A stretch of DNA of 64,000 nt from NCBI GenBank assembly GCA_963706595.1, contig OY970166.1, positions 5,280,001 through 5,344,000 of the forward strand. Direction: 5' to 3'. The position numbers and the translations under genes were made by a program. Each line of letters begins with the position of its first letter. Within the stretch, counting starts at the first letter, position 1. The notes beneath the pieces are model-generated. The model saw nothing but the letters and a program-made list of their open reading frames with translations, was not told where the DNA came from and did no database searches. Below are positions 11,445-28,803 of the stretch, in pieces. This stretch comes from an uncultured cyanobacterium. GTDB lineage: Bacteria > Cyanobacteriota > Cyanobacteriia > Cyanobacteriales > Nostocaceae.

Positions 11445-11509
11445 ATTCCCGTGTCCAATGAGAAAGAGAAATGTTCACATCTTATTTAGGATCGCTATAT
11501 TATCCAATT

Positions 11510-11776: not shown

Positions 11777-11802
11777 ATAAAATTACAAAAAACTACTAAA
11801 AA

Positions 11803-12333: not shown

Positions 12334-12474
12334 GGCTTTGATTCACTTTGCTCAAATTCAGTTTTTTATATTTTAATTCTTTTATGAATTGACGCGCCGC
12401 AAAACTTCAAACTTTCAACCCCCAGATGAAGCAGGGGGTTTGAATCTAGTTTATATTTGTGCCATGATCGCCAA

Positions 12475-13233: not shown

Positions 13234-13293
13234 TTTATAGTGCAGAATGTAGGTAACTTATATTACCCAATTTTCTCAAATAACAACATCCTT

Positions 13294-14079
13294 ATGTTAT
13301 TTTTATCTCGTCAAGCTGTAATCACGCCTTTGGTAGCCTGTTTGTGTTTGTTGGGAGTTAGCTTAATTCAGTTTCCTCAACTACAAACTTTGTTAACCAG
13401 CAAAGAAGATATCTCTTTAGATGTTCTCGAAAGAGACATTAAAACCGAAAGCTTGCGGCTGAATTTGCTGAAAAAAATGCCCAGTTTTGGTTATGGTAAT
13501 TTAATGGCTAATTGGGTTTATCTGGGTTATTTACAATATTTTGGTGATGAAGAAACTCGTGCTAAAACAGGTTATCGCCTCAGTCCAGAATATTTTGAAA
13601 TTGTTTTAGAACAAGACCCACGCTTTTTAGCAGCTTATTTGAGCCTTTCTACCAGTGCTTCTATATACGCTGGGATGCCAGAACGCTCTATAGAAATTAT
13701 GGAGAGGGGTTTACAGTCTTTGTCTCCCTGGGTTCCTCAAAGGTCTTATTATGTGTGGCGTTATAAGGGCATTGATGAGTTATTATTTTTAGGAGACACG
13801 AAATCTGCTCAGGAATCTTTTGCGACTGCGGCAGAATGGGCTAGTAATTTTTCAGATGATGAAAGTCAATCAATTGCTGCGAGTTCTCGGCAAACTTCTA
13901 TATTTTTAAGTCAAAATCCTGATAGTAAAAACGCGCAGATATCCGCCTGGGTTATGGTGTTAAATAATCAAATTGATGACAAGACTCGTGCCAGAGCAAT
14001 TAGCGAAATTGAGGCTTTGGGCGCACAGGTGACTATTACCCCGGAAGGAAATAGAATTTCATTTCCTGAACAAGAATAA
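13294..14079 (+). CDS. Conserved cyanobacterial hypothetical protein
   Basis: N-terminal TM, PSFGYGNLMANW, LQYFGD, DELLFLGD. Confidence 0.75.
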   Translation: MLFLSRQAVITPLVACLCLLGVSLIQFPQLQTLLTSKEDISLDVLERDIKTESLRLNLLKKMPSFGYGNLMANWVYLGYLQYFGDEETRAKTGYRLSPEYFEIVLEQDPRFLAAYLSLSTSASIYAGMPERSIEIMERGLQSLSPWVPQRSYYVWRYKGIDELLFLGDTKSAQESFATAAEWASNFSDDESQSIAASSRQTSIFLSQNPDSKNAQISAWVMVLNNQIDDKTRARAISEIEALGAQVTITPEGNRISFPEQE

Positions 14080-14118
14080 ACCCCACCCCCAGCCCCTCCC
14101 CGCAAGCGAGAAGGAGAG
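14080..14118. repeat. Dispersed GC-rich hairpin repeat (related copies at ~23810-23848 inverted, ~59324-59364, ~25577-25614, ~35447)
   Basis: CCCCACCCCCAGCCCCTCCCCGCAAGCGAG.AGG.G motif recurs at gene ends. Confidence 0.7.
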
Positions 14119-14148
14119 TTTAAGAGTTGTATATAGTAGGTTAGTGTT

Positions 14149-14922
14149 ATTTATTGGTATAAAGGCAAATTTATAGAATCCCAAACTCTGGAGTTAGATA
14201 TTAATGATCCGGGGTTACTTTTTGGGGCTACGGTATTTACAACGGTGCGGGTTTATGGTAATAGCCTCGATAGTAGTTTAACTAATTGGGTGGGACATTG
14301 CGATCGCCTACTTTTCTCTTTACAATCTTTTGGTTGGCGAGAACCAAATTGGCATCTGGTGCGTCAAGGTGCGGAAATTCTGGCGGAACATTTCCCGATT
14401 CTGAGAATTACTCTGTTTGCTGATGGCCGAGAATGGATAACTGGAAGGTTATTACCACCGGATTTAATCGAAAGACAACAACACGGCATTACCACAAATC
14501 TGGCATTATCGAACTTTTATCGCAGTCTGCCTTCTCATAAAACTGGCAACTATCTGAGTGCTTGGTTGGCGAAGACTCACGCCCAACAGTTAAATTCTCA
14601 GGAAGCCATTTTAATCGATGCCACAGGCAATTGGCTAGAAACTACCACAGGAAACCTTTGGGGATGGCAGAATGGTAGTTGGTGGACTCCACCATTAACA
14701 GAGGGCATTTTACCGGGAATCGTGCGATCGCAATTAATCAAGAATCTGTCCACAGTCTTGGAGTCACCTTGGAATGCCGAGTTAGTGCGGGGATTTGAAG
14801 CGATCGCCTACACTAATAGTGTGGTAGAAATTATTCCCATTCACACCGTTGTGCAGCCCACAGGGTCGCTACAATATAATCCCTACCATTCTAGTTTTCT
14901 ACAAATCAGGGAGCTTTTTTAA
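14149..14922 (+). CDS. Aminotransferase class IV / 4-amino-4-deoxychorismate lyase
   Basis: Frame extends upstream of 14245: IYWYKGKFIESQTLELDINDPGLLFGATVFTTVRVY; HKTGNY, ETTTGNL, GILPGIVR motifs. Confidence 0.85.
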   Translation: MYWYKGKFIESQTLELDINDPGLLFGATVFTTVRVYGNSLDSSLTNWVGHCDRLLFSLQSFGWREPNWHLVRQGAEILAEHFPILRITLFADGREWITGRLLPPDLIERQQHGITTNLALSNFYRSLPSHKTGNYLSAWLAKTHAQQLNSQEAILIDATGNWLETTTGNLWGWQNGSWWTPPLTEGILPGIVRSQLIKNLSTVLESPWNAELVRGFEAIAYTNSVVEIIPIHTVVQPTGSLQYNPYHSSFLQIRELF

Positions 14923-15039
14923 CATGACAGCCGCACCGTTATGTTATACCTTAAGATAAGTTAACATAATTCTTAATAATGCCCTCTCATATCAGAGAAG
15001 CTACGCTAACTCACAAAAAATACAGGAGGATAGACCTCA

Positions 15040-16878
15040 GTGAATAAAAGATGGAGAAATGCGGGGCTGTATGCGCTGCTATTTATAGTTGTCATTGCTC
15101 TAGGAACAGCATTCTTTGACAAACAACCTCAAACTAGAGAAACATGGCGATACAGTCAATTTATTCAAGAAGTTGACAAAGGCAGTGTAGATAGAGTCAG
15201 TCTGAGTGCAGACCGCTCTACAGCACTTGTTACCTCCAGAGATGGTGACAAAAAGGTAGTAACTTTAGTCAATGACCCTGATTTAATCAATAATTTGACT
15301 GAAAAGGGCGTTGATATCGCTGTTATGCCCCAAACTGACGAAGGATTTTGGTTTAAAGCACTGAGCAGTTTATTTTTCCCTGTATTGCTTCTGGTGGGTT
15401 TATTCTTCTTACTACGTCGCGCTCAAAGTGGTCCTGGAAACCAAGCCATGAACTTTGGTAAATCCAAAGCCAGAGTGCAAATGGAACCACAAACACAGGT
15501 AACATTTGGCGATGTCGCTGGTATTGACCAAGCCAAGCTGGAATTAAACGAAGTAGTAGACTTTCTGAAAAACGCCGACCGCTTTACCGCAGTTGGAGCC
15601 AAAATTCCTAAAGGTGTATTATTAGTTGGACCTCCTGGTACAGGTAAAACCCTCCTCGCTCGTGCTGTAGCTGGTGAAGCTGGTGTACCCTTCTTTTCCA
15701 TCTCTGGTTCTGAATTTGTGGAAATGTTCGTTGGTGTGGGTGCTTCCCGCGTCCGCGATTTGTTTGAACAAGCTAAAACCAACGCTCCTTGTATCGTATT
15801 TATCGATGAAATTGACGCTGTAGGTCGTCAACGGGGTGCAGGTTTAGGCGGTGGTAACGATGAACGGGAGCAAACCCTCAACCAGTTACTCACCGAAATG
15901 GATGGTTTTGAAGGTAATACAGGCATTATTATAATTGCTGCTACCAACCGTCCTGATGTCTTAGATGCAGCCTTATTGCGTCCTGGTCGTTTTGACCGTC
16001 AAGTAGTTGTAGACCGTCCTGACTATGCTGGACGTAGCGAAATTCTCAAAGTTCACGCCCGTGGTAAGACCTTAGCCAAGGATGTAGACTTAGATAAAAT
16101 TGCTCGTCGGACTCCTGGTTTTACCGGCGCAGACTTATCCAACTTGCTCAACGAAGCGGCAATTTTGGCAGCACGGCGCAACTTGACTGAAATTTCCATG
16201 GATGAAATCAATGATGCCATTGATCGCGTCTTAGCTGGACCAGAGAAGAAAGACCGGGTAATGAGCGAGAAGCGCAAAACCCTAGTAGCTTATCACGAAG
16301 CTGGTCACGCTTTAGTTGGTGCTTTGATGCCCGACTATGACCCAGTACAAAAAATCAGCATTATTCCTCGCGGTCGTGCTGGTGGTTTAACTTGGTTTAC
16401 TCCTAGTGAAGACCGGATGGACACAGGCTTGTATAGCCGTTCTTATCTGGAAAATCAAATGGCTGTAGCTTTAGGCGGTCGTTTAGCTGAAGAATTAATC
16501 TTTGGTGATGAAGAAGTTACCACTGGTGCTTCTAATGACTTGCAACAAGTAGCCCGTGTAGCGCGTCAGATGATTACTCGCTTTGGAATGAGCGATCGCT
16601 TGGGACCAGTCGCTCTTGGTCGTCAGCAAGGTAATATGTTCTTAGGCAGAGATATCATGTCAGAGCGTGATTTCTCCGAAGAAACTGCTGCTGCGATTGA
16701 TGAAGAAGTTCGTAAACTGGTGGATGTAGCTTATACACGAGCTAAAGAAGTATTAGTTAACAATCGCCACATTCTTGATTTGATTGCGAAAATGCTGGTG
16801 GAAAAAGAAACAGTAGATTCCGACGAACTGCAAGAAATTTTGACAAATAACGATGTCAAAACTGCTGCTTTCGCTTAA
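15040..16878 (+). CDS. ftsH3: ATP-dependent zinc metalloprotease FtsH (FtsH3 type)
   Basis: [11 protein letters not shown]-terminus, [18 protein letters not shown]. Confidence 0.96.
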
Positions 16879-16901
16879 TTAACTTTGGTTGCAGTTTAAC
16901 T

Positions 16902-16945
16902 AAAATTGGGTAGTTCTGGTTTTTCCAGAGTTACCCAATTTTTTT
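16902..16945 (+). terminator. Intrinsic terminator after ftsH3 (probably bidirectional)
   Basis: AAAATTGGGTAGTTCTGG-loop-CCAGAGTTACCCAATTTTTTT. Confidence 0.75.
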
Positions 16946-16959
16946 ATATCGAGAGGCTT

Positions 16960-16992
16960 AGATCCCCGACTTCTTGAAGAAGTCGGGGATCT
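16960..16992. repeat. Palindromic dispersed repeat
   Basis: AGATCCCCGACTTCTTGAAGAAGTCGGGGATCT perfect inverted repeat. Confidence 0.75.
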
Positions 16993-17022
16993 TTCTTTTC
17001 TTTGGGTTAGTAAATAATGCTG

Positions 17023-19497
17023 CTAATTGAAATTTATATATTCAGAAGTATATTCAGCAGGAAGTAAACGAATAAACTGACTTGGAGATTTTTGGTAGTT
17101 TTTAGAATCTCGGAGAAAAGCCGAAATAAACAAACGTTTTTTTGCCCTTGTCATCGCCACATAAAACAGGCGCTTTTCCTCTTCTAGCTTACCATCCCGG
17201 ACACTGAAATAAGTTGGAAACTCATCTTCAGATAAACCTGCGAGAAAAACCGTATCGAATTCCAAACCTTTTGATTGATGAATCGTGATAATCAGAACTT
17301 GATTATTATCCTGAGAAATTTGGTCTAAATTTTTCGCTAATGCAGTATAATCAATAATACTTCGTAGTGCAGTATCTGGATGTAGTTCTAAATCATCCTG
17401 CTTTTGAAAAATCTTGACTAGCCTTTTGAGATTTTCTAGACGTTGTGGTTCCTGCTGTTGATAATAGTCATATAAACGAGACTCAACTAAAATTTTACCC
17501 AACAAATCTGCTGGGCGCAACCTCTGGCTTGCATCTCTCCACGCTTCAATAGTATTAGCTAAAGTTTCAAATTCTTCTCCATAACGATAGACTAAAGCTT
17601 GACGATAGTCAGCACGTACTTTGACTAAAGGTATGAGAATTGCCAATAATTCAACCGTTGTCAGAGTATCATCCATAGCATGATGATTTGGTACTTGATG
17701 CAGGTTTAATTTATTTGCTAAATTTGACAAACTATAGCTATCTGATTTTATAAACCTTTTAGCTAAATCCCAAGTATCCGCCCATTGAAATTTAGGAGTT
17801 GATAAACCTAACTTTTGAGCATGGGCTATGATCATTTTAATATCAAAACCCAGATTATGCCCAACTAAAAAGGCATCTTGAATAAAATCTAAAAATCTCT
17901 CAAATACATCAATTGCATTCTCGCCATTAGTTGCTAAGAACTCATCACTGTAACCATGTATTTGTTCAGAATCTCCCACAGCAACAGTATTTTGAATATA
18001 AGCATGAAATTCTGCTTTCACCTGTCCCTTAACTAATTTTACCGCCGCAATTTCGATGACTTCATCTTGACTCACTGAAAAACCAGTTGTTTCCACATCA
18101 AAAACAACAATTGTGCCATTATTATAAGCAGATATTAAATTACTAAAAGGGTCGCCATCAATAAAGGTTTGAGTAGATACCATATCAGTGAGTTTAAACC
18201 CACAAGCGTCACCCTCTTGGATAACATTTTCAATGGTGACAGAACCTATACCACGACTGGGACGTATTAATAGCCGCCGCATTGAACCTGTATCAAAAGG
18301 GTTTAAAACTAACCGCAGATAAGCCAGAGCATCCTTAACTTCCTGACGCATAAAAAATTGATGCTGCTCGACTGTAACACAGGGAATATTTAACTGTTCT
18401 AGAACTTTAGTAACAATCTCAATTCGTTTGTGATTTCTAGTTAAAACAGCAACACGATTATAGAGCATATCGGGGTCATTATGAGATAATTTTTTAATCT
18501 GCGCCCCAATCCATTGAGCTTCATCGAGTTCATTTTTAGCTGCATAAATGGGAATTAATTCTCCCACTTCACAAACAGGTGCGGGAGTAATTTTTGTATA
18601 TCTTTGTTCAAAAGAATCAGCAAAACCAGAAGCAGCCTTGAGTAATGTTTGAGTCGCGCGGTAGTTCCAAGTGAGAGAGTATTCTTGAGGTTGAAATTCT
18701 TGTTTAAATTGACTAATAACTTTATCAGGTTCGGAACCTCGCCACTCGTAAATAGTTTGGTCTAAATCACCAATCATGGCGATATTACCAGTAGGAGAAG
18801 CTAAACATCTGACAATTTCATATTCAGATAGATGAGTATCTTGGACTTCATCAACTTGGATAAACTCAAAGCGTTGCTTCCATCTTTGTTGAATTTCCGG
18901 ATAATATTGCAGCATGGAACGCACGTAAAATATTAAGTCTGCAAAATCGACAGCATGACGTTCTTGAAGAATGCTTTGATATTTACTCGCTAATTGTGCT
19001 TGACGTATTCCTAGAGATGCAAACAGTTTTTCTAAGGGATAATGGGGTGATAACTGCAACTGACTAGCTTTAACTTTACAATCAGCTAATTTAGAAAATA
19101 TATCTTGAGCTTCTTTGTCCTTTGTGAAACGGAAAATATCTTTAATCAGTCCTAGACAGTCAGCATCATCATAAACTACAAAATCTGCTGGTAAACCAAT
19201 TTGACGAGCTTCAACTCGCAGCATGGAAGTACATAAACTATGAAAGGTTTTTATAGTGATGTAGCGAAATTCTTGAGGACACATTTCTGCTAACCTTTCT
19301 TGCATTTCTTTAGCTGCTCGGTTAGTGAAAGTCAAACACAGAATTTTTTCAGCAGGAATACCGCTTTGAATAGCTTGAACTACTCTTGATGATAAAACGC
19401 GGGTTTTACCAGTTCCCACGGGAGCAAGAACTAAAATTGCTCCGTTGATGTGGTTGATGATTTTTAATTGGTCTGGATTGGGTCGGGTTTGTGACAT
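17023..19497 (-). CDS. UvrD/Rep SF1 helicase with inserted DEDDh (DnaQ-like) 3'-5' exonuclease
   Basis: APVGTGKT, TFTNRAA, VDEVQD, GDLDQTIYEWRG, TIHQSKGLEF, RLFYVAMTRAK; exonuclease motifs VFDVETTG, GHNLGFD, HHAMDD. Confidence 0.93.
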   Translation of the reverse strand: MSQTRPNPDQLKIINHINGAILVLAPVGTGKTRVLSSRVVQAIQSGIPAEKILCLTFTNRAAKEMQERLAEMCPQEFRYITIKTFHSLCTSMLRVEARQIGLPADFVVYDDADCLGLIKDIFRFTKDKEAQDIFSKLADCKVKASQLQLSPHYPLEKLFASLGIRQAQLASKYQSILQERHAVDFADLIFYVRSMLQYYPEIQQRWKQRFEFIQVDEVQDTHLSEYEIVRCLASPTGNIAMIGDLDQTIYEWRGSEPDKVISQFKQEFQPQEYSLTWNYRATQTLLKAASGFADSFEQRYTKITPAPVCEVGELIPIYAAKNELDEAQWIGAQIKKLSHNDPDMLYNRVAVLTRNHKRIEIVTKVLEQLNIPCVTVEQHQFFMRQEVKDALAYLRLVLNPFDTGSMRRLLIRPSRGIGSVTIENVIQEGDACGFKLTDMVSTQTFIDGDPFSNLISAYNNGTIVVFDVETTGFSVSQDEVIEIAAVKLVKGQVKAEFHAYIQNTVAVGDSEQIHGYSDEFLATNGENAIDVFERFLDFIQDAFLVGHNLGFDIKMIIAHAQKLGLSTPKFQWADTWDLAKRFIKSDSYSLSNLANKLNLHQVPNHHAMDDTLTTVELLAILIPLVKVRADYRQALVYRYGEEFETLANTIEAWRDASQRLRPADLLGKILVESRLYDYYQQQEPQRLENLKRLVKIFQKQDDLELHPDTALRSIIDYTALAKNLDQISQDNNQVLIITIHQSKGLEFDTVFLAGLSEDEFPTYFSVRDGKLEEEKRLFYVAMTRAKKRLFISAFLRDSKNYQKSPSQFIRLLPAEYTSEYINFN

Positions 19498-19508
19498 AGA
19501 AAACTTAT

Positions 19509-22500
19509 TTAAATACCGAGAGATTTATAGGGTTTATCTTCTCGAGAACTTGATTGTTTTAGACTGTAATAAGAACGAACTAATGCAGGTTCATCTTGAT
19601 CAAAAAGTACTGAGACTTTTCCATCTAATGCAAGCTTACATGAATCAGAAATGAGATAATCTGTTGCTTTGCATAAATCTTCTAAATTGGAAAGACTAGC
19701 CAACTTTGCTGGGTCATGTAATCCCAAAATTAATATATAGTTTTTCTTTATCCTAGTAATAATTTGAGGAGAACTAGCTAATATGTCGCAAATTGATTGA
19801 ATAGTTTGGTGATCCTCAAACTGTTTAGCAACAGATCCTAGATATAACCATGTTTCAGTTGCTTTGAGGCGTTCAATATCAGATTTACCTTCTATGGCAG
19901 ATTTGAAAATAAATTCCCAATCTTTTACATCAAGATTTGGCAAAAAACGCATGGCTTCCAGAATAACAGCACGCAGGTAATTACTTGTTTCATTTGTTTT
20001 GTTAATATACTCTTCTTGTAGCTGTTTAATAGCTTCAGTATAACCTTGACGTGCCAGACTAAGAATAACATCTAGTAAGTCTCTTATGACAAATAATTCT
20101 TCGTCGCAAATCAGTTTAACAATTTCTATCCATACGTCATCAAACTCTTGCCATGCGTCATAAAACTCTTTATTAAAACCTAAAATTGATAATTTATTGA
20201 TAGCAAATCTTAAGTGGGTTTCCTCCTTTCTTTGTTTAATTTTAAGTTTACGTTTTTCTTCATTTGTACTGGGTGTGCGACTTTTTCTTTGTGCAATAAC
20301 TTCTCTCAATGAAGCAAGGCTATTATAAAACAACTGAAGAATTTTTTGTTTTAAATCTTTTTTATCTTTTAGCCATAGACATTCTAAATTATCAAAGCTT
20401 CTTGTCCAGTTGGAAATGATATTAAAATTACTGCCATTAGGAAAATGTGGTAATTTTAATTCGTTAATTGTATTCTCGCTCTGCTGGAATAAAATCTGAT
20501 AAATTTTTCTGCTTAGATAAGTATCGCTAACATATATATTAATTGAAAAAAGACACTGCTGATATATTTTTATTAACTGCCACCAAAGAATTTCTTTTTC
20601 ACTATTATGAGCAAATCTAAATTTTGTACGGTAGTTCGAGTTCATTAACCATAATTTATACATTAAAAAGTTAAATTCTTTGCCTAATTTTTCTAACGCA
20701 TCATCGTCAGCAAAAACTTCTAAAAACAAATTTATATTTTTATAAACATCAGTTTTATCATTATTAATTGCAAGTCCAAGCTTTTCTAACTCGTCATACA
20801 ATACAGATTTAACATTCTCAATATATCTGACATCTGCACTAGGTAGAATCATAATTATATCATCAACATAGCGGTAAAAATCTAGTTGAAATTGCTTATT
20901 ATTTCTCAAATTGTTATCTAAAGAGATTAAATATAAATTTGCATAAAATCCTGATGTATTTGTACCTTGATTCAGCCCTATTTCCTCTCGAATTTTGGCG
21001 GAATTATCATAACTTAAATCTCTATAAATAAGTTTCCTTAATAACCACTCAATACGTTTACTACTTTGTCCATCTTTTTCTAGTTTATACTTAACAATAT
21101 CGAGAAGCTTATTTTGCTTTATTTTGGTATAGTAAGCTTGGATGTCAGTTCTCAGAACTACACCATCTTTATTTTTTTGCCTTTTCGCACTTTTAGTCAC
21201 ATCTTCTCTAAACTTTTTCCAGTCTTCCCACCAGTTTTCATATAAATATTCTGTTTCATTCTCATAGGATTTTTTTTGGGGCTTATAGGTATAAAAATCA
21301 AGCTCCATTTTTTGACCAATTACTTGAATAATTGCATTTGCTAAGATTTCTTCCTCTAGCCTCGAAAGTTGTTTAGGACGACTACTGGTACTTCCTTTGG
21401 GAATATTAGCTGATACTGTTTCTTTACGAGCATCTATGAGATAGCAATAATCTATTAAGCACTGCTGCATTTCTCGAAGATGATGTTCTAGATGTCTTTC
21501 AAACAATAAAATTTCTATGTCATCATATAGGAATTCATCCAATACATTTTTTCTGGCTCTAACCCAGGCTAACTCAAGATTTTTAAGATCGATAACTCCC
21601 GCCCAATTTTTATCTTGTTCTACTTCACGATTAGTAATAGTTAAAAAGCTAACTGGAAAGGTTGAAGAATAATGTGATTTATTATTATCAAACCAATAAC
21701 TATCAATAGGATTATTAAATTCAACTTGCTGTAATTGTTTTAAATTATCATTTTTGCACAGTGCATGACTATCATTAATTACTTTTTCAACAGCTTTAAC
21801 TATTTCTGCCATCCCTTCGTTTAATTGATAATAAGAATAATTTTGGCGAATATGCTTATCCATATCTTTTGTGCCTACAGTCAATAGATGTAAATTTTCT
21901 AGTGGTACTTCTTCTAATAGTTGCTTATATGATAAAGCTTCTTCTTGCCAAATTTCTTTCTCATCTGGCATAATTAAATCAACCTCTACACCTAAATCTT
22001 TGAGCTTTTCATATTGTTGTTTTTTAAAAAGTTCTTCTTGATTTAATGATGAAACAATATCAAGTTGGGTAATTAAAAGATTGGATATAACAGGATGCTC
22101 CCAAAATATGCGTTTCTTTTGAAGATAGCGCATTGTAGTAATAATTCCTTTGGGAACACTCTCACAGATAGGCTGAAACTCTAAATGAATGTTGAATGAT
22201 TTAATATTCTCTTTGATTTCCTGCATTAACTTGCTATATAGTGTAAAACCATAAATACTAGGGTCAATACCTAGACAAATAATTTCCAGTGGATTTGAAA
22301 TTTCTTCATCCTTCTTCCACGCTAAAATTCTCTCAATAAAAGCAGCAGAGGCGGCTCCCATAGCACCTATATCTATTAGACAGATACGTGGGTTATATTT
22401 GAGTCTGTTGAGTAGTTTAGTTGATTGAATAGTTTTTTCTAGAATATGGGCAGCTTCAAAATAGTAACGCGGAAAAAGAGCATAGAATTGAAAAGCTGTA

Positions 22501-23057
22501 TTTTTTAAATCTGCTTTATCTAACGAATACCAAATATCTTGTGCATAATCGAGTTCCTTGTATCCGTTAGCTTCTGGCCTTTCTGATAACCATTGATGTA
22601 CAGCAGAGTAAGCAGATTCAATCACAGGATGAAAAGAGCGATAAATTTTGGCCTCTTTAGCCATAACTAAATTCGTGAGTTGTTTCGACTTTTGCGCGGG
22701 AAGTCCTGATAGTGCTTGTAACAAGAGTTCCTTGGCTATGTCATTAATAGCCTTTCCATCATTTTCGGCTCTCTGTTTTAAAGCTTCTATGGTTTCATCC
22801 TCTAGTCGAATAGTGACTACCCTTCCTGGTTCCCATAAGATAGTTAACTCACCATTGAGAACCTGAACAACATCTTCAATAGTTTCTAGTCTAGATTTAC
22901 CAGGATTTTCTATTGCTTTACTAATAGAACTGTGATATCGCGAAGCAGGGGAAACATCTCCTCCTATGGCTCGATATTCTGCAAATTCCTTGGCTAGTTT
23001 GTACAACGTCCAGTCCAACTTCTTGAGACGTTGCTCGAAATCCTCTTTTTGTATCAT
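19509..23057 (-). CDS. Large multidomain reverse transcriptase (HTH + RHH + methyltransferase-like + RT + helical repeats), UG/Abi/DRT-like
   Basis: RT motifs NLELAW, PKGSTSSRP, RTDIQAYYTKI, GLNQGTNTSGFYANLYL, YRYVDD (20859-20870), GLAINNDKT; N-terminal HTH, VTIRLEDETIEALKQRA (RHH), IDIGAMGAAS. Confidence 0.88.
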   Translation of the reverse strand: MIQKEDFEQRLKKLDWTLYKLAKEFAEYRAIGGDVSPASRYHSSISKAIENPGKSRLETIEDVVQVLNGELTILWEPGRVVTIRLEDETIEALKQRAENDGKAINDIAKELLLQALSGLPAQKSKQLTNLVMAKEAKIYRSFHPVIESAYSAVHQWLSERPEANGYKELDYAQDIWYSLDKADLKNTAFQFYALFPRYYFEAAHILEKTIQSTKLLNRLKYNPRICLIDIGAMGAASAAFIERILAWKKDEEISNPLEIICLGIDPSIYGFTLYSKLMQEIKENIKSFNIHLEFQPICESVPKGIITTMRYLQKKRIFWEHPVISNLLITQLDIVSSLNQEELFKKQQYEKLKDLGVEVDLIMPDEKEIWQEEALSYKQLLEEVPLENLHLLTVGTKDMDKHIRQNYSYYQLNEGMAEIVKAVEKVINDSHALCKNDNLKQLQQVEFNNPIDSYWFDNNKSHYSSTFPVSFLTITNREVEQDKNWAGVIDLKNLELAWVRARKNVLDEFLYDDIEILLFERHLEHHLREMQQCLIDYCYLIDARKETVSANIPKGSTSSRPKQLSRLEEEILANAIIQVIGQKMELDFYTYKPQKKSYENETEYLYENWWEDWKKFREDVTKSAKRQKNKDGVVLRTDIQAYYTKIKQNKLLDIVKYKLEKDGQSSKRIEWLLRKLIYRDLSYDNSAKIREEIGLNQGTNTSGFYANLYLISLDNNLRNNKQFQLDFYRYVDDIIMILPSADVRYIENVKSVLYDELEKLGLAINNDKTDVYKNINLFLEVFADDDALEKLGKEFNFLMYKLWLMNSNYRTKFRFAHNSEKEILWWQLIKIYQQCLFSINIYVSDTYLSRKIYQILFQQSENTINELKLPHFPNGSNFNIISNWTRSFDNLECLWLKDKKDLKQKILQLFYNSLASLREVIAQRKSRTPSTNEEKRKLKIKQRKEETHLRFAINKLSILGFNKEFYDAWQEFDDVWIEIVKLICDEELFVIRDLLDVILSLARQGYTEAIKQLQEEYINKTNETSNYLRAVILEAMRFLPNLDVKDWEFIFKSAIEGKSDIERLKATETWLYLGSVAKQFEDHQTIQSICDILASSPQIITRIKKNYILILGLHDPAKLASLSNLEDLCKATDYLISDSCKLALDGKVSVLFDQDEPALVRSYYSLKQSSSREDKPYKSLGI

Positions 23058-23096
23058 TTTTGTCTGCTCCCCTATGTGTTGGCTGTTGATAAACTC

Positions 23097-23125
23097 AGCT
23101 TATCCCCATTTATGTATTACGTCAA
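23097..23125 (-). promoter_or_regulatory. Sigma70-type promoter of the RT gene
   Basis: Minus strand TTGACG-17 nt-TAAGCT; GGGAG RBS at ~23068-23072. Confidence 0.6.
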
Positions 23126-23164
23126 TGATATAGTTTACTAAAAAAGTTGGCGACAACAAAAATC

Positions 23165-23193
23165 TTGACAGTGTTTAATTTGCGTGTAACAAT
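23165..23193 (+). promoter_or_regulatory. Possible divergent promoter
   Basis: TTGACA-17 nt-AACAAT (imperfect -10). Confidence 0.4.
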
Positions 23194-23349
23194 AGCTGAA
23201 GACGCAAAAAAGAAGGCACTCCAACTTCATTGGAATGCCTTTTGCTCTAGTGAACCTCTCCCAATTGCCTTGGGATGGGCTACTAACTTGCTTCATTTAA
23301 ATTGTTTGTAGAATTCTCAAACTCCGAAATAAAATCAAAGGAACGAAAA

Positions 23350-23682
23350 ATGAGAACTATATCTAACCATGATAACTCATCGGCTGTTGACATAGCACAA
23401 ACACTTGCCCCTCTTCCTGCTCCTCTGCCTGAAAAAATTACATTTATGGAAGTGACGCTGGCTTTAGTCAACGCACAAAACCAACAAATTCAGGAAAAAC
23501 GGGATGATGAGAGACGTGGGTATTTAATGCAAGACATTATGCGGTTAATTGCACAGCTTGGAATTCCCTCTGGTAATCAGCGTGTTCTCAAAGCAATGAC
23601 AACTTCACAACTTGATGCTTATGCAGAGGAGTTGTCTCAGCAGCTAAAAAACCGTCCGATGAAACATCTGTCAGTAGCATAG
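23350..23682 (+). CDS. Small hypothetical protein divergent from the RT
   Basis: 110-aa ORF from ATG 23350, helical; followed by a hairpin at 23698-23728. Confidence 0.6.
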   Translation: MRTISNHDNSSAVDIAQTLAPLPAPLPEKITFMEVTLALVNAQNQQIQEKRDDERRGYLMQDIMRLIAQLGIPSGNQRVLKAMTTSQLDAYAEELSQQLKNRPMKHLSVA

Positions 23683-23847
23683 TACAATGTAATTTGACCA
23701 GGAGGGGCATTTATTATGCCTTTCTTGGGTTGCGAAGTCAGGTAGTGAACTCCAATTTCCCCATTAAGCCCCAAAAACAGCAATATTTTCAAACTTTTCT
23801 ATCATATTTCTCCCCTCCTCGCTTGCGGGGAGGGGCTGGGGGTGGGG

Positions 23848-24858
23848 TTAAACTACAACGACTGGAGTTGTCACCTTTTCCGGTCTTTGGTGGGGAGGAC
23901 GCATTTCTAAGCCCAACAAATTCAGCATTTCTTTGTCAGCGTCATAATCTGGACAGGGAGTAGTGACTGTGAGCATTTGATTATCATCGCTGGAGAAGAT
24001 GGAATTTGCCCCAGCCATAAAGCATAAGGCTTGTTCCACTTGGGAAAGTCTCGCCCTACCAGCACTCAGACGCACGTCAGAATTTGGCATAATTATTCTG
24101 GCTGTGGCGATCATGCGTACTACTTCCCAAATCGGTACATCTGGTTGGTTTTCTAGGGGTGTACCGGGGACTTGGGAAAGAATATTAATGGGGACGGACT
24201 CTGGATGAGGTTGTAAATTTGATAGAGTTTCTAACATCCCCACACGATCTTCGACGCTTTCGCCTAAACCGAGGATACCGCCAGAACAGACGGTGACATT
24301 TGTCTGTCGGACATTATCGATTGTATTCAGGCGATCGCCATAAGTTCTCGTGGTAATAATCGTATTATAATATTCCGCAGAAGTATCCAAGTTATGGTTA
24401 TAAGCATATAGTCCGGCTGCTTCTAAGCGTTTCGCCTGATTTGTGGTCAGCATTCCCAGAGTACAGCAGACTTCTAAACCCATATCGGTGACTTCTTTCA
24501 CCATTTCCAGGACTGTCTCAAATTGCGAGTTATCCCGCACTTCCCGCCAAGCTGCACCCATGCAAACGCGACTTACGCCCGTTGCTTTGGCTTTTTGGGC
24601 AATATTAATCACTGTTTCCTTCTCTAACAGTGCTTGAGGCTTGACTTCGGTTTGATAACGGGAAGACTGGGCGCAGTAGCCGCAATCTTCGGGACAAGCA
24701 CCTGTTTTAATGGAGATTAGCTTACAAACTTGTATTTTTGTTGAATCATGATATTGGCGATGCACGCTAGCAGCTTGATAAATCAGCTCTAGGAATGGAG
24801 TGTTGTATATCGCCTGAATCTCTGCTTTCTGCCAATTATAGCGTATTCCCACCGACAT
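23848..24858 (-). CDS. bioB: Biotin synthase
   Basis: CPEDCGYC radical-SAM motif, YNHNLDT, VRLSAGR, GANSIF. Confidence 0.97.
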
Positions 24859-24981
24859 CACTATCCTTCTTATAAACTGGATTGATCAAGAGCCATGTTT
24901 TGCTGGCTCTTTTAAATATTAGACATCAGCTTACCAAGATTTTGGTGATCTGGCAGATTGATTGTAAAAATTATTACTCTT

Positions 24982-25563
24982 ATGAAATCAGAACTCCCAC
25001 TTATTACGAGCGATCGCCTGACATTAAGAATTGCTATTAAAAAGGATATACCACAACTAATTAAATATTTCTCTGACAATAAAACTTATTTTACACCATT
25101 TTATCCGATTTTATTTAATCAGTTGTATACAGAAGAATATTGGCAATATCAAATTGAAAACAATGTCTTGGAGTTCATCCATGACCAATCATTAAAGCTG
25201 TTTATTTTTCCGCAGAAAAAAGCCACGAAAGTTATTGGAACAATAAATTTTACTAATTTCATCCGAGGCGCAGCGCATTTTTGCTATGTGGGATATAGTT
25301 TGGCAGAATCTGAGCAAGGTCAAGGGTATATGACAGAAGCCTTAAAAGTTGCGACTGATTATGTATTTGAAGAATTAAATTTTCATCGCATCATGGCTAA
25401 TTATATGCCTCACAATCGGCGTAGTGGTAATGTCTTAAAAAGACTCGGTTTTGTGGTGGAAGGATATGCGAGAGATTATTTATTAATTAATGGTAAATGG
25501 GAAGATCATATTCTCACAAGTTTAGTCAATCCCCACTGGAAACCAGAGGATTTGACTTTGTAA
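24982..25563 (+). CDS. rimJ: Ribosomal-protein-alanine N-acetyltransferase (GNAT)
   Basis: GQGYMTEAL, HRIMANYMPHNRRS, YLLINGKWEDH. Confidence 0.9.
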   Translation: MKSELPLITSDRLTLRIAIKKDIPQLIKYFSDNKTYFTPFYPILFNQLYTEEYWQYQIENNVLEFIHDQSLKLFIFPQKKATKVIGTINFTNFIRGAAHFCYVGYSLAESEQGQGYMTEALKVATDYVFEELNFHRIMANYMPHNRRSGNVLKRLGFVVEGYARDYLLINGKWEDHILTSLVNPHWKPEDLTL

Positions 25564-25602
25564 GGGATGAGTAGAACCTCACCCCCAACCCCTCTCCTTA
25601 TT

Positions 25603-25922
25603 AAGGAGAGGGGAGAATTAAGCCGCCGGGAGTCCAAAGTAATTTCCAATCCCCCTGCTCCCTGCTCCCTGCTTCTTTCTCAATCTGGTCTCAAGTTTGT
25701 AGGGTGTGTTGTCGCGTAGCGCAACGCACCATCCTAAATTTCGGTGCGTTAGGACTAAAGTCCATAACGCACCCTACCAAATGAAAGGTTTTTGGACTTG
25801 TGTGTACACCGTAGTTCCTTCCCAAGGAGAGGGGAGAATTAAGCCGCCGGGAGGGAGTCCAAAGTAATTTCCAATCCCCCTGCTCCCTGCTCCCCCGCTT
25901 CTTTTTCAATCTGGTCTCAAGT
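25603..25922. repeat. ~95-bp direct duplication (25603-25696 / 25824-25922) enclosing a REP-like palindrome and a solo MITE end
   Basis: Near-identical copies; GTAGGGTGTGTT...AACGCACCCTAC at 25699-25777; ACTTGTGTGTACACCGTAG at 25796-25814. Confidence 0.85.
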
Positions 25923-28803
25923 CGTTAGATAATTCGATAATTCCTCTAGAGCCATCCATCCGTACCCGTTGCCCATCCTGTAATATCCAGGTGGCATTGT
26001 GAACATCCATGATGGCGGGAATTCCGTACTCACGCGCGATGATTGCACCGTGGGAAAGTCGCCCACCAGCCTCAGCAATTAAGCCGCCAGCCCTGACTAA
26101 CAGAGGGGCCCAGCCGGAATCTGTGTAAGGTACTACCAAAATTGTTTCGCGGTTGATTTCTGGTAAATCTTGTAAATTCCTTACCACCTTGATTCTTCCT
26201 TCGGCTTGTCCGTGACTGGCGGGAATACCCTGTAATGTTTGGTCTGAGTAAAGAGGCGAGGGGGGAAGGGGATGGGGTGGTGTATGCCCGTAAACTAAAA
26301 GGGGGATTTGATTAAACTGACTATCTTGGTCGAATTGCGATCGCCTCAATTGTACTATCTCAGATAAATTTTTCCTGAGTTGAAAATCATCACCCACTAC
26401 TAAGCGCCGCACTTCCGGTAATTCTAGAAAAAAGATATCCCCAGTTTGCTGAAGTAAGCCGGATTTTAACCAAATTTGCTCTAAGGCTACAAATCGCCAG
26501 CGCAATTCAGCCAATAGTCGAGAATACAGTTCGGTAACTCGTCCTTTAATATCTACCCGTCGCTGTACTACCCCTCGTTTGCGCTTGGCTGATAAAATTC
26601 GATTGATGGCATCTCCACCATCTCCATCTGTCTCTGCTCTATTTTGCAATAACTGCACAAACAATTGCTTGATGGGTTGGGGGTTTTCCTTCCAGGTCGG
26701 AACAGCAATATTTGTCCCCACATCACTTAAATAACCGTAATCTTCCAGCAGTTCGTTAAATTCATCGAGAATTTTTTCTCCCTCTGGGGTTTGTGACAAT
26801 TGTTCAAATACTTGATTTGGTTCGCACTCAGGTAATACTTGTTTCGCATCTGCGGCTAAAGCAGTGAGCGATCGCAATGCTGATACTTCTGGAGCTACAC
26901 TGTGATCAATTTCCTCATCTTTGACCCGAAAAATGGCCTGTCTCAAGGCTGCACTCAAGGGCGCTAAGATGCTGTAATAAGTGCCACTGCGGAGCAATTG
27001 CAGAATCAAATCTATTTTTTCTAAGAGCTGGGGCGCTGTCAGTTCTTCTATAGATTCATTTGCTAGTTGTGACAAACCGGGAATAAATTTTCGACTATAA
27101 TCCCGCTTAAAGTCTTTTTCTAAGCTGAGTTCTTGCTTCAGCAGCCGCATTAATCCCGGCAAATTCGCCAAAGTGGACTTTAACGCTGGTTTGCTCATTT
27201 TAGCGCCTCTGGTTAAAAATTCCAGACTTTCCGGTGGTAAGCCCATCCGCAGAAAAATCTGTCCTAAGAGGGATGCGTTAAAATAAGCTCTAGAGTGATG
27301 CAGTGTGGCAGTTTCGGTAAAATCTAATCCCAAGGCGCGATCGCCTAAAACCAAAGTGAAAATATCTCCCCAAACCCCACAAGTTAGGGGGCGATTAATT
27401 GACCAGGTTAAGGGTTGAATGACACCAGGAATAACTTCGGCGGCGATTTTCCTGGTCCAGATAGGTAACAGGGTCGTAATGGGTCGAGATTGCAAAACCC
27501 AGAGATTTTGACTGTCATAGGTCCATTCAATATCTTGGGGCAGACCGTGATATTGTTTTTCTAGTCGCCGGACTAAGTATACTACTTGTTTAATTAATGC
27601 TTGTGGTACTTGCCCTCTGCCCTCTAACTGCACAGAGGAAATATTCTCTGTTTCTACCACAAAAGCGCGATATTGTTCTGGTGTAACTTTGCCGGAAACA
27701 ACTTGAGTGGCGCTACCGGGTAAAGCTTCAATGACAATTGCATCGCCTTGTTGGGTGATGGGGTCGCGACTGAAAGCTACGCCAGAATACACACTCTGAA
27801 TTTGTTGTTGTACCAGTACTGCCATTGCTGTATCTGGTAAACCGCGATCGCGCCGATATTGGACAGCCGATGGATGATTGTATGAAGCTTGGACTTGAGC
27901 GATCGCCACTTTTAATTCCTGTTGGCTGGTAACATTCAAAATTGTTATGTACTGTCCAGCCGCCGAAGCTTGTTCCGAGTCTTCCCCGATAGCCGAGGAA
28001 CGCACCACTAAAGGAGATAAATCAGAAGGCTGAAGCATTGCAATCAAGCCTTCGGGATCATCCGTTGGGGAAATCACCCATCCTTTCGGCACTGGATAGC
28101 CCCAGCGCTTAATTTGAGATAATGTAGCGGCTTTTTGACCGACCACAGCCGGATCTAACTCGTCATCTAGAGAAAGAAGCGAGCGATTACCGCGTAAATA
28201 TGCAAAAGCTGCTTGTGAATCTGTCTCGGCTGCTTGGACTGGCAAATTCAAATCATCGGGAATTTTTGTGTAAATCCACCCCAATACACTAGCTAGGACA
28301 ATAGCCGCCATGACTTTGGGGAAATTGCCAACATTCAGAAGCAAGACAAACACGGGAAACACAAATAAAACTCCGAATTTTACCCGTTGCCGAGATTGCA
28401 GAACTGTAAAACTGATAATTGCCAACAAACCTGTAAATATCGAAACCAGGGGGTCATGGACGATAAATCCCCAAACGACGTTGGTTGTACCTGCCCCTCT
28501 ACCTACCCCATATCTACCTAATACCAAAGTCATCAGGGCGATTAATTCCCAAGCCGATCCTTCGGGAAAAAACACGCGAGACAGGAATACTGCCACAATT
28601 CCTTTGATTGCTTCTGACAAAACAGCCAGAATACCTACTAGTCTGCCGCCATGATAAAAAGCGGCTGAAACGCTGATGTTTTTAGTGCCAATTTGTGATA
28701 ACTGCCTACCTTTGAGGGCGTAGGTAATCCAATCAATAATTGGTAACGCTCCCAAGACTGGACAGGCAATTAAAATAACTAAGGCTCCCCAAAGTTCACT
28801 CAT
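25906..28803 (-). CDS. PlsY-like membrane domain fused to PEP-utilising (PPDK/rifampin-phosphotransferase-like) enzyme
   Basis: N-terminal GTKNISVSAAFYHGG with TM helices; VRSSAIGEDS, DIEW, QSRPIT ATP-grasp; GGRLSHGAIIAREYGIP phospho-His domain. Confidence 0.88.
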   Translation of the reverse strand: MSELWGALVILIACPVLGALPIIDWITYALKGRQLSQIGTKNISVSAAFYHGGRLVGILAVLSEAIKGIVAVFLSRVFFPEGSAWELIALMTLVLGRYGVGRGAGTTNVVWGFIVHDPLVSIFTGLLAIISFTVLQSRQRVKFGVLFVFPVFVLLLNVGNFPKVMAAIVLASVLGWIYTKIPDDLNLPVQAAETDSQAAFAYLRGNRSLLSLDDELDPAVVGQKAATLSQIKRWGYPVPKGWVISPTDDPEGLIAMLQPSDLSPLVVRSSAIGEDSEQASAAGQYITILNVTSQQELKVAIAQVQASYNHPSAVQYRRDRGLPDTAMAVLVQQQIQSVYSGVAFSRDPITQQGDAIVIEALPGSATQVVSGKVTPEQYRAFVVETENISSVQLEGRGQVPQALIKQVVYLVRRLEKQYHGLPQDIEWTYDSQNLWVLQSRPITTLLPIWTRKIAAEVIPGVIQPLTWSINRPLTCGVWGDIFTLVLGDRALGLDFTETATLHHSRAYFNASLLGQIFLRMGLPPESLEFLTRGAKMSKPALKSTLANLPGLMRLLKQELSLEKDFKRDYSRKFIPGLSQLANESIEELTAPQLLEKIDLILQLLRSGTYYSILAPLSAALRQAIFRVKDEEIDHSVAPEVSALRSLTALAADAKQVLPECEPNQVFEQLSQTPEGEKILDEFNELLEDYGYLSDVGTNIAVPTWKENPQPIKQLFVQLLQNRAETDGDGGDAINRILSAKRKRGVVQRRVDIKGRVTELYSRLLAELRWRFVALEQIWLKSGLLQQTGDIFFLELPEVRRLVVGDDFQLRKNLSEIVQLRRSQFDQDSQFNQIPLLVYGHTPPHPLPPSPLYSDQTLQGIPASHGQAEGRIKVVRNLQDLPEINRETILVVPYTDSGWAPLLVRAGGLIAEAGGRLSHGAIIAREYGIPAIMDVHNATWILQDGQRVRMDGSRGIIELSNDLRPD

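Follow-up and report, generated by a model that had tools for sequence, protein, structure and literature searches.

A candidate anti-phage UG35 reverse transcriptase-helicase block at a variable ftsH-bioB site of a filamentous cyanobacterium

Between the genes for FtsH (15040-16878, + strand) and BioB (23848-24861, − strand), both assigned with Pfam, the cyanobacterial window analysed here (the whole stretch of DNA, 64 kb in length) carries a gene for an exceptionally long reverse transcriptase (RT) and a gene for a helicase. This locus raises the question of whether the two genes form an undescribed defence system, as an earlier note on this DNA proposed, or belong to a known one, and what the individual parts might be doing. 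The ORF calls and Pfam matches agree with that note on the overall layout: the genes are co-oriented, the helicase starts 11 nt after the RT stop, the helicase has an embedded exonuclease, and a small ORF lies divergently upstream. The block between ftsH and bioB is also AT-rich: GC content is 0.309 for the RT body and 0.367 for the helicase, whereas the window as a whole has 0.401, and ftsH and bioB have 0.45-0.46. We rejected low GC as a sign that the window's RT allele was recently imported, because the different allele of a congener is equally AT-rich (0.306 vs 0.309). The features of the locus are as follows.

16902..16992, two strong, terminator-like hairpins (inverted repeats I8 and I9) in the gap where ftsH and the helicase gene converge
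17023..19497, − strand, UvrD/PcrA-type SF1 helicase containing a DEDDh exonuclease (PADLOC RTasHel; ORF call of 824 aa)
17644..18108, − strand, DEDDh 3'-5' exonuclease domain (aa 464-618; Pfam RNase_T, E 1.1e-27), inside UvrD_C
19509..23057, − strand, UG35 Class 1 UG/Abi reverse transcriptase (PADLOC RT_UG35; ORF call of 1182 aa)
19486..22573, − strand, RT "body" segment that differs from a congener's allele (by identity to G003, locus L070)
19512..20636, − strand, C-terminal region (aa 808-1182), predicted alpha-helical repeat domain of the Class 1 type, covered by RT_UG35
20637..21593, − strand, RT fingers/palm region (aa 489-807; Pfam RVT_1 at aa 552-772)
20859..20870, − strand, YVDD motif (aa 730-733)
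21624..22649, − strand, domain predicted to have a class I methyltransferase fold (aa 137-478), nearest METTL17/Rsm22 in an AF2 model
22653..23057, − strand, N-terminal extension (aa 1-135), with a possible HTH-like repressor segment ahead of a ribbon-helix-helix
22707..22823, − strand, ribbon-helix-helix (RHH; aa 79-117), from FitA-like matches and the structure model
23082..23104, conserved overlapping inverted repeats of CTGAG-N8-CTCAG type and GATAA-N7-TTATC, from an alignment of upstream regions
23203..23241, − strand, conserved terminator-like hairpin of 12 bp with a U-run after it, ~150 nt before the RT start
23350..23682, + strand, divergent small gene, ~110 aa, all-alpha, from the homologue alignment

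Identity of the reverse transcriptase and its helicase

Both proteins match models of PADLOC-DB v2 end to end. The RT aligns over aa 137-1176 to positions 2-937/938 of RT_UG35 (PDLC03774; 976.3 bits, E 4.5e-294), the next-best UG model being RT_UG25 with 110.9 bits, and the helicase matches RTasHel (PDLC03802; 1039.4 bits, E 0); both models are filed under DRT in that database. UG35 was described as a group whose RT bears an N-terminal methyltransferase domain and with which a putative UvrD-like helicase is associated (Mestre et al. 2022, PMC9226505). The window presents the same features, namely a predicted methyltransferase fold that is fused with the RT and the C-terminal region into one protein, an adjacent RTasHel (cluster 22) helicase and an intact YVDD motif. 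As judged by sequence, these tool results show the RT and the helicase to be members of the UG35 system. Because full-length PADLOC models and a published description exist, the claim that the system is undescribed fails, as does the statement that no named system combines such an RT with a UvrD partner: the pair matches an already described system, and the block is, on its model matches, a member of the catalogued candidate anti-phage system UG35 rather than a new system. WP_015225717.1, which is among the 15 UG35 tree labels listed from Mestre FileS1.nex, is one of the relatives of the window's RT that share its long N-terminus (P0058; 46% identity, 99% coverage).

Within the RT core, the residues Y730, D732, D733 and D638 are invariant across 29 aligned RTs. 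Profile searches against the PDB matched the core to Abi-P2 (7r08, E 4.7e-10) and to UG15 chains (E 1.2e-05); these matches span the RT core alone (positions ~484-790), and neither the RHH nor the methylase-like domain nor the C-terminal region has a sequence match among solved chains. Class 1, to which UG35 has been assigned, comprises RTs with fused alpha-repeat domains (PMC9226505), and one homologue (L088) shows a HEAT_2 match, below threshold (E 7.6e-05).

The order of domains in the window's RT is the same as in the UG25 system, which combines a methylase-RT with a divergent DUF1848 gene (PMC9226505). Unlike in UG25, no DUF1848 Pfam match was found in the helicase, the small ORF, ftsH or bioB, and UG25 membership was rejected on this ground and on the model scores (110.9 vs 976 bits).

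The sequence of the RT core most resembles those of group II intron-type RTs (NCBIfam TIGR04416, E 1.9e-21; PDB profiles), as might be expected if the locus were a mobile retroelement, group II intron-like or retron-like, with an RT that serves its own propagation. We consider this reading scarcely credible. The TIGR04416 score (76.6 bits) lies far below the cut-off of 300, the PADLOC retron model RT_outgroup is matched with E 1.1e-07 only, and Rfam revealed no intron or retron RNA at E ≤ 1 over 16800-24000, so that neither a group II intron RT/maturase nor a retron was accepted. Furthermore, a scan around 16850-23900 for direct repeats at the flanks or for att-like sites returned short, chance-like repeats only, the RT-helicase locus occupies the same chromosomal site in two species, and the window's RT is the only full-length UG35 match in its genome. 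The sole Rfam match in the searched span, to an unrelated sRNA model (E 0.12), falls inside the helicase gene.

In the helicase, Pfam places UvrD-helicase at aa 7-269 and UvrD_C at aa 273-794. The Walker A motif GTGKT (aa 28-32) and the motif DEVQD (aa 216-220) are invariant in 32/32 full-length partner helicases, and so is each of the exonuclease residues D467, E469, D552, H605 and D610. The window's helicase has its catalytic residues intact, in Walker A and B as well as at all five DEDDh positions. Among the 120 matches listed for aa 430-680, all relatives contain PF00929, and in the full-length relatives among them (~805-845 aa) this domain lies inside a UvrD frame. A separate UvrD-like frame in the genome, 776 aa long, is 30% identical to the helicase and has no match to aa 448-642, and for this reason we rejected the possibility that the helicase is the housekeeping UvrD.

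Gram-positive DinG and WRN have a DEDD exonuclease appended to an SF2 helicase in one polypeptide. The likeness to DinG extends to an NCBIfam match (NF005981, aa 462-622) and to the presence of a DEDDh exonuclease and a helicase in one chain; unlike in DinG and WRN, the exonuclease of the window's protein sits as an insertion within the C-terminal half of an SF1A UvrD core. Second to RTasHel, the PADLOC models that fit the helicase best are those of Gabija GajB (E 1.3e-92), which align in two stretches and skip the DEDDh insert. Gabija was rejected as an identity for the locus, since the neighbours of the helicase are the RT and ftsH with no GajA, an OLD-family ATPase/TOPRIM nuclease, and RTasHel outscores GajB by 1039 to 310 bits.

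The regulatory head, the methylase-like domain and the small gene

The N-terminal extension is not covered by the RT_UG35 model and is restricted to one "long" clade of 17/47 RTs in the tree. The earlier note had read the head of the protein as an HTH, an RHH and a methyltransferase, and the three parts fared differently. For the RHH, 14 of the 16 homologous N-termini gave FitA-like matches at E ≤ 0.05 (best 5.8e-06; all below the Pfam cut-off), and in the structure model aa 79-117 form a beta-alpha-alpha element. Signs of the HTH are weak: Pfam HTH_23 was matched in 1/16 N-termini at E 0.015, phrog_4268, a "transcriptional repressor", was matched at E 0.0044, and pLDDT is below 50 across most of aa 25-58.

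The methyltransferase fold is found in an AF2 model built from a 41-sequence alignment (mean pLDDT 73.7). With VIA-align, the modelled domain superposes on METTL17/Rsm22 chains with Z 17.2-19.7 over 240-264 residues (rmsd 3.5-5.6), compared with Z 11-13 for generic SAM-dependent methyltransferases, and Foldseek gives E 2.4e-06. The fold comparison thus supports a methylase-like domain that is predicted to fold like METTL17/Rsm22, and would thereby resemble an RNA-binding (rRNA-binding) assembly factor. The glycine-loop residues D229, G231 and G234 are invariant; SAM binding is uncertain, because in the lineage of the window's RT this loop is one residue shorter than in most relatives.

The small gene was confirmed as divergent, with a revised start. 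The longer ORF runs from a TTG (23302..23682, + strand, 126 aa), and an alignment of 14 homologues points to the ATG at 23350 as the likely start, giving 110 aa. Homologues are present at 14 loci, the window included. In the tree, 14/17 long-N RTs have the gene (L034 starts at a contig edge), and it is always divergently upstream of the RT. In its conserved C-terminal half, differences are distributed over the three codon positions as 1241/783/2020, as expected for coding sequence. The protein model (pLDDT 75.9) is all-alpha. Pfam, PADLOC, NCBIfam and PHROGs assign the protein to no family, nothing in the PDB matched its sequence below E 0.9, Foldseek gave nothing below E 1.5, and the ESM Atlas yielded no usable match.

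Subclades, a variable site and exchanged parts

The subclade of the window's RT (long-N) is recognizable by three features: the RHH N-terminal extension, a helicase downstream and a conserved divergent helical protein of ~110 aa. Elsewhere among RTs scoring as UG35, the helicase lies upstream or, at 12 loci, a divergent DUF1848 gene takes its place. At helicase-upstream loci the largest ORF cluster that could represent a third gene covers 4/17 loci, all of them Moorena records, and for the DUF1848 partner no PDB sequence match was found at E ≤ 1. The helicase adjoins the RT in 14/17 long-N loci (in one case merely as a 227-codon frame) and in 16/18 short-N loci of the helicase type, the remaining 3/17 and 2/18 having an RT without helicase.

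The RT was found in 2/61 genomes of relatives (the window's included), in 1/10 other congeners and in 4/401 genomes of a phylum-wide sample, a search that scored two candidates per genome and may undercount. In the same sample, 8/401 genomes have a helicase match, with an RT beside it in two of the eight. Three more of the eight are intact helicases without an RT, two directly after a restriction-modification (R-M) pair, consisting of HindVP-type REase and C5 MTase genes (G155 and G255), and one beside an IS630 transposase (G176). The remaining matches are two fragments, of which one likewise follows that R-M pair, and one copy cut by a contig end. Helicases that stand alone or next to an R-M pair cut against an obligate RT-helicase pair. 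The best reading of the block is an RT-centred, probably defensive module of several genes.

The ftsH-bioB site itself is variable, as a synteny check in related genomes revealed: unrelated cargo of 1.6-4.0 kb is present there in three congeners. We therefore favour, as the best explanation of the setting, that a filamentous cyanobacterium carries the block as accessory cargo at a variable site.

Comparison with the locus at the same site in a congener (G003) revealed that the similarity is strikingly uneven. Identity is 91-100% over 22574-23911, which includes the small gene and the RHH module, drops to 52-67% over the RT body and returns to 91-99% in the helicase (17086-19485). Tree incongruence and AU tests agree with a differing RT-body allele; with the window set aside, the trees of RT and helicase are broadly alike in shape. 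In a sister genus, at the same locus, the slot ahead of the same helicase is filled by a type II R-M pair. The two exchanges, that of the RT body and that of R-M for RT, share a 3' breakpoint at the helicase start; the other boundary of the RT-body exchange is at aa ~160. These alignments show parts of the UG35 block to have been swapped, apparently like cassettes. The exchanges indicate that the regulatory head and the helicase must stay together and that the other parts are replaceable, and they can be regarded as natural experiments that argue for an immune role and for modularity.

The same observations could be explained if two autonomous units shared the slot, the helicase being a self-sufficient defence or repair gene whose adjacency to the RT reflects a recombination hotspot at the helicase start, and the RT alleles or R-M pairs ahead of it acting on their own. 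We find this improbable. It would account for the shared breakpoint, for the intact helicases without RT in G155, G255 and G176, and for UG35 RTs that have no helicase or have DUF1848; however, the helicase is adjacent in 30/35 loci across the two helicase-type RT clades, gene order is constant within each clade with 4-nt overlaps or gaps of 11-18 nt, as expected for operons, and the likeness of the two trees outside the window speaks against independent units. In addition, the truncated helicase of G217, in an R-M context, fits an orphan that decays once its RT has been lost.

A non-immune cellular role of the RT-helicase pair, for example in DNA repair or nucleic-acid processing, is weighed against the same distribution. 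Such roles were predicted for some UG groups, UG4 and UG27, and the defence prediction for UG35 was scored as inconclusive (PMC9226505). No defence-type Pfam domain was found among the neighbours from 12475 to 28803, and the modelled likeness of the methylase-like domain to an rRNA-binding assembly factor would also fit a cellular function. We nevertheless regard this role as very unlikely, given the rarity of the RT in the phylum sample and among congeners, the variability of the site with its unrelated cargo, the exchange of alleles, the R-M system found in the RT's place at the same slot, and several decayed or interrupted copies (L018, L029, L048, L051 and L054).

Proposed function

The overall explanation that we hold with good confidence is that the locus is a UG35 member, carried as accessory cargo at a variable site, and belongs to an RHH/third-gene subclade, with functions that can be proposed by analogy. 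The block probably acts against phages or other mobile DNA. Full-text literature searches (UG35, DUF1848 and related terms) returned no functional test of UG35 later than Mestre et al. 2022. The window and its relatives offer a sharper starting point for experiments, with a partner helicase that has an intact proofreading-type exonuclease, an antitoxin-like DNA-binding head and a third conserved gene in one subclade, and DUF1848 as an alternative partner used by the same RT family.

AbiK, Abi-P2 and DRT4 are single-gene systems. Together with DRT7 (UG10), they have RTs of the same class as the window's RT, Class 1 UG/Abi, DRT4 being UG15. Class 1 DRTs have been reported to catalyse untemplated synthesis (PMC13174585), DRT4 to make random ssDNA without a template (PMC12783706), and some Abi/UG RTs to combine protein priming with template-independent synthesis (10.64898/2026.02.16.706125). 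Because of this shared class, we infer that the window's RT may, with somewhat less than even confidence, make DNA without a nucleic-acid template, possibly in a protein-primed manner.

For the helicase-exonuclease, an action on DNA 3' ends can be suggested only with considerable doubt. It might destroy invading DNA that the upstream module has made accessible; alternatively, it might trim the RT's own product as a form of control. A bolder and rather unlikely extension, to which the cassette exchanges give rise, is that the helicase-exonuclease is a constant effector that unwinds and degrades DNA from 3' ends made or exposed by whatever lies upstream. RT bodies, set between a conserved RHH/regulatory module and the helicase, or even a type II R-M pair would be exchanged by recombination in a slot ahead of its start codon. 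If so, UG35 would represent one form of a modular "sensor/initiator plus shared helicase-nuclease" type of immunity that diversifies by cassette exchange.

Several of these elements were not found in the main text of Mestre et al. 2022: the invariant DEDDh residues, the RHH subclade, the ~110-aa protein, the predicted METTL17/Rsm22-like fold, the upstream-helicase and DUF1848 partner types, the exchange of RT-body alleles and the replacement of the RT by an R-M pair. The words exonuclease, DEDD, RHH and ribbon are absent from that main text (PMC9226505), and its passages on UG35 name neither a third gene nor a DUF1848 partner; part of this may be contained in its Supplementary Table S2.

The DNA upstream of the RT suggests how the operon could be controlled. 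The RHH N-terminus is a plausible, if tentative, candidate repressor of the divergent promoter region that would act at the conserved inverted repeats, while the terminator-like hairpin further upstream would insulate the operon from read-through. Across 12 loci, 7/12 pairs of this hairpin have both partners changed in one locus or more, and its frequent G-U pairs on the RT strand would be A-C mismatches on the other strand. The inverted repeats lie ~25-45 nt upstream of the RT ATG, and could represent either an operator or a 5'-UTR hairpin. At one locus (L010), the variant CTGG..CCAG is symmetric, so that the inverted repeat is preserved.

A UG35 reverse transcriptase and its helicase partner

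The block between ftsH and bioB encodes a reverse transcriptase (RT) of UG35, a group of UG/Abi RTs, together with the partner helicase that PADLOC models as RTasHel. The RT aligns end to end with the PADLOC-DB RT_UG35 model (E 4.5e-294; its aa 137-1176 pair with positions 2-937 of the 938 in the model) and the helicase scores 1039 bits against RTasHel; both models are filed under DRT (defence-associated RT). The parts of Mestre et al. 2022 (PMC9226505) that deal with UG35 introduce it as a new Class 1 UG/Abi group, describe its RTs as having a methyltransferase domain at the N-terminus and an association with a putative UvrD-like helicase, list it among the groups with an inconclusive defence prediction, and place it outside the systems tested there. 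FileS1.nex of that paper carries at least 15 UG35 tree labels, among them WP_015225717.1 (our relative P0058), a protein of 1158 aa whose match extends over 99% of the window's RT, N-terminal extension included. An earlier note had regarded the pair as an undescribed system, a view to be given up if the pair matched one already described; since both proteins match catalogued models and the published group, that claim falls. The locus is real and well formed, and what it adds is a fresh member of the catalogued UG35 group, no new type of system. A full-text search on UG35, DUF1848 and related subjects found no later study of UG35 function.

Genes of the locus and its flanks (window positions)
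15040-16878: flanking FtsH gene (Pfam)
17023-19497, minus strand: helicase, 824-aa ORF, starting 11 nt past the RT stop (ORF map)
19509-23057, minus strand: RT, 1182-aa ORF (ORF map)
23302-23682, plus strand: small ORF of 126 codons, divergent from the RT (ORF map)
23848-24861: flanking BioB gene (Pfam)

This is the layout and placement that the earlier note had described, and the AT-richness it reported is also borne out: GC content falls from 0.401 for the window to 0.367 for the helicase and 0.309 for the RT body.

As read from their sequences, the catalytic motifs of both enzymes are intact. Pfam places RVT_1 at aa 552-772 of the RT, and YVDD (aa 730-733) and D638 are invariant in the alignment. 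The helicase is a complete UvrD protein (UvrD-helicase aa 7-269, UvrD_C aa 273-794) with, embedded in its C-terminal half, the 3'-5' exonuclease that had been noticed there before (RNase_T/DEDDh, aa 464-618, Pfam E 1.1e-27). Walker A GTGKT, DEVQD and the DEDDh residues D467, E469, D552, H605 and D610 occur unchanged in every one of the 32 full-length partner helicases. Searching with aa 430-680 returned 167 clusters at E <= 1e-10; PF00929 was present in all 120 matches listed, and in the full-length relatives among these (~805-845 aa) it lies inside the UvrD frame. Because another UvrD-like gene exists elsewhere in the genome (30% identity, without the exonuclease segment), the helicase was ruled out as the housekeeping UvrD.

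Solved structures match the RT by sequence in its core alone (group II-like RTs, Abi-P2, Drt2, Drt3a and UG15), and the likeness to Abi-P2, a Class 1 enzyme, is confined to this core (E 4.7e-10, PDB profile search). Residues 137-478 are confidently modelled as a class I methyltransferase fold, whose best structural matches are METTL17/Rsm22 chains (Z 17.2-19.7, 240-264 residues aligned; generic SAM-methyltransferases reach Z 11-13, well below); Foldseek gives E 2.4e-06 for this region. In its glycine loop, D229, G231 and G234 do not vary across 41 sequences; the loop is one residue shorter in the window's RT and in P0004, the relative nearest to it, than in the other aligned sequences. The N-terminus (aa 1-135) lies outside the coverage of the PADLOC model, and AF2 models it, at low confidence, as three helices followed by a beta-alpha-alpha element (aa 79-117). 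Among 16 homologous N-termini, 14 give a match to FitA-like RHH (best E 5.8e-06) and 13 to RHH_1, all under the Pfam cut-off, and a PDB profile search returned weak RHH matches alone (AvtR E 0.12, Mnt E 0.94). HTH signals are weak at best (HTH_23 in 1/16; a PHROGs "transcriptional repressor" family, E 0.0044). Of the HTH-RHH-MTase head proposed previously, the RHH and methyltransferase parts are supported and the HTH part is weakly indicated at best.

Patchy distribution and exchange beside the helicase

The distribution of the module is accessory and patchy. Among 61 related genomes RT_UG35 turned up in 2, one of them the window's own, which amounts to one of ten other species of the genus; in a phylum-wide sample it turned up in 4 of 401 genomes, a count that may be too low because two candidates only were scored per genome. 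The congener G003 carries the locus at the same site, and the ftsH-bioB interval (16949-23800 in the window) measures 6.9 kb with the module in both. In three congeners without UG35 (loci L076, L077 and L078) the interval holds unrelated genes over 1.6-4.0 kb: a Pkinase-RDD protein in G002 (1.6 kb), three ORFs without Pfam matches in G009 (1.9 kb), and DUF6174, a phytochelatin-synthase-like protein and a methyltransferase in G006 (4.0 kb). Neither flanking repeats nor an integrase turned up around the locus.

Recombination evidently swaps the RT body, or the entire RT module, beside a conserved helicase, as judged from alignments and trees.

Nucleotide identity of the window to congener G003
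22574-23911: bioB-side spacer, small gene, promoter region and RT aa 1 to ~160; 91-100%
19486-22573: remainder of the RT; 52-67%
17086-19485: helicase from the start codon on; 91-99%

At the protein level, the window's RT matches relative P0018 at 96% in aa 1-135 and at 47-51% in three later segments; with P0004 the values are 86% and 67-74%. Among 14 shared loci, the RT-body tree groups the window with locus L031, outside the Nostoc-type clade (SH-aLRT 100), and the helicase tree places it inside that clade (SH-aLRT 99). Forcing either tree to the other's arrangement costs ~165 log-likelihood units (p-AU ~1e-66), the groups having been named after the trees were inspected. Low GC as a mark of the newer RT allele was ruled out: the window and G003 alleles are equally AT-rich, so that it is a trait of the RT body and silent on which allele is newer.

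A sister genus shows a second exchange. There, G138 has the small gene, RT and helicase. G155 and G255 share with it the left flank (86-87% identity) and the helicase with the right flank (88-90%), and in them a HindVP-type restriction endonuclease and a C5 cytosine methylase replace the RT, 15 nt upstream of the helicase (L083 4617-9205; L084 4802-9435). G217 (L086 5467-8048) also has this R-M pair, with a helicase truncated to 317 aa behind it. Helicase matches occur in 8 of the 401 phylum-sample genomes: adjacent to an RT in two, intact directly after the R-M pair in two, intact beside an IS630 transposase in one, as fragments in two (one after the same R-M pair), and cut by a contig end in one.

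Partner arrangements and proposed function

We collected 71 RT relatives at E <= 1e-10, nearly all named ones being cyanobacterial, and 63 loci from a one-genome-per-species scan; UG35 was the best PADLOC model for 24 of 24 RTs scored (917-1399 bits, with UG25 no higher than 204). Three partner arrangements emerge when a tree of 47 complete RTs is read alongside a neighbour scan, the RHH head and third gene being specific to one subclade.

Partner arrangements of UG35 RTs
Long-N RTs (with the N-terminal extension, including the window's; 17 rows, SH-aLRT 100): helicase downstream in 14/17 (L012, a 227-codon frame only), Uma2/DUF4351 or IS genes in its place in L009, L011 and L014; small divergent gene in 14/17 (absent from L007 and L031; L034 begins at a contig edge)
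Short RTs (without the extension), helicase-type (18 rows, SH-aLRT 100): helicase upstream with a 4-nt overlap in 16/18; no conserved third ORF found by neighbour ORF comparison
Short RTs, DUF1848-type (7/8 rows of one clade; 12 loci altogether): divergent DUF1848 gene

The relevant part of PMC9226505 attributes the DUF1848 partner to UG25; here it also stands beside RTs that score UG35, not UG25, in PADLOC (L037 5760-6746, L045 5940-6923, L028 1100-2056 and nine further loci). DUF1848 had no PDB sequence relative at E <= 1. Copies at L018, L029, L048, L051 and L054 are decayed or interrupted, and in two helicase-upstream loci an insert of ~1.4-1.5 kb splits the RT frame (L048 8455-9814; L054 7267-8768). 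L030, from a non-cyanobacterial Anaerolineae MAG, has a short UG35 RT between two different UvrD/AddB-like proteins of 737 and 797 aa (4994-7207 and 11118-13511), neither an orthologue of the DEDDh helicase. Four further RT-domain frames of 304-748 aa in the window's genome (G000:C1 4624025, 1214678, 2968478 and 2270625; L002-L005) match the UG35 model in the RT core only (E 2.8e-14 to 2.6e-4; two, both 557 aa, score identically) and are probably RTs of the group II intron type or of some other kind.

We consider an immune role likely, given the class membership, the patchiness, the variable site and the R-M system that replaces the module in the same slot. By analogy with the Class 1 enzymes treated in parts of PMC13174585, PMC12783706 and 10.64898/2026.02.16.706125, the RT could perform untemplated DNA synthesis, possibly protein-primed. 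The substrates of the helicase-exonuclease would be DNA 3' ends: it might destroy invading DNA or trim the DNA that the RT makes, and the RHH head may serve autoregulation. The main rival holds that helicase and upstream module have separate functions and lie side by side at a recombination hotspot; we retain it because the helicase stays intact after R-M pairs and RTs occur without a helicase, and judge it rather unlikely. The details added here (exonuclease, RHH head, third gene, DUF1848 alternative, METTL17-like fold, and the swapping of cassettes, R-M for RT among them) should open the way to concrete experiments on UG35, the mechanism staying a proposal.

The small gene and its upstream region

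Long-N RTs alone were found to have a homologue of the small gene as neighbour. When these homologues are aligned, the ATG at 23350 emerges as the start, giving 110 aa, with a variable N-terminal half and a well conserved C-terminal half. Differences at codon positions 1/2/3 number 1241/783/2020 in the conserved half, which is coding-like, and 1745/1422/1595 in the N-terminal half. The protein is modelled as all-helical (pLDDT 75.9), and searches with Pfam, PADLOC, NCBIfam, PHROGs, PDB, Foldseek and ESM Atlas assigned it to no family and gave no match by fold or language model.

Intergenic features from alignment of upstream regions
23241-23203, RT strand: conserved 12-bp hairpin, then a U-run
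23165-23193, directed at the small gene: promoter-like TTGACA-17-AACAAT
23082-23104: conserved overlapping inverted repeats, immediately upstream of the RT ribosome-binding site

The 12-bp hairpin has both-sided changes in seven pairs among 12 loci, and many G-U pairs, which are mismatches on the opposite strand. We read it as a putative terminator insulating the RT operon; it could also mark the end of a transcript made from the RT strand that runs antisense to the small gene. The inverted repeats are a candidate RHH operator, or else a 5'-UTR hairpin. From the 12-bp hairpin to the small-gene start (23241-23349), long-N loci share a conserved sequence that includes another small hairpin, TCCCA-N7-TGGGA; this stretch could serve as the small gene's 5' leader or belong to an RT-strand transcript.
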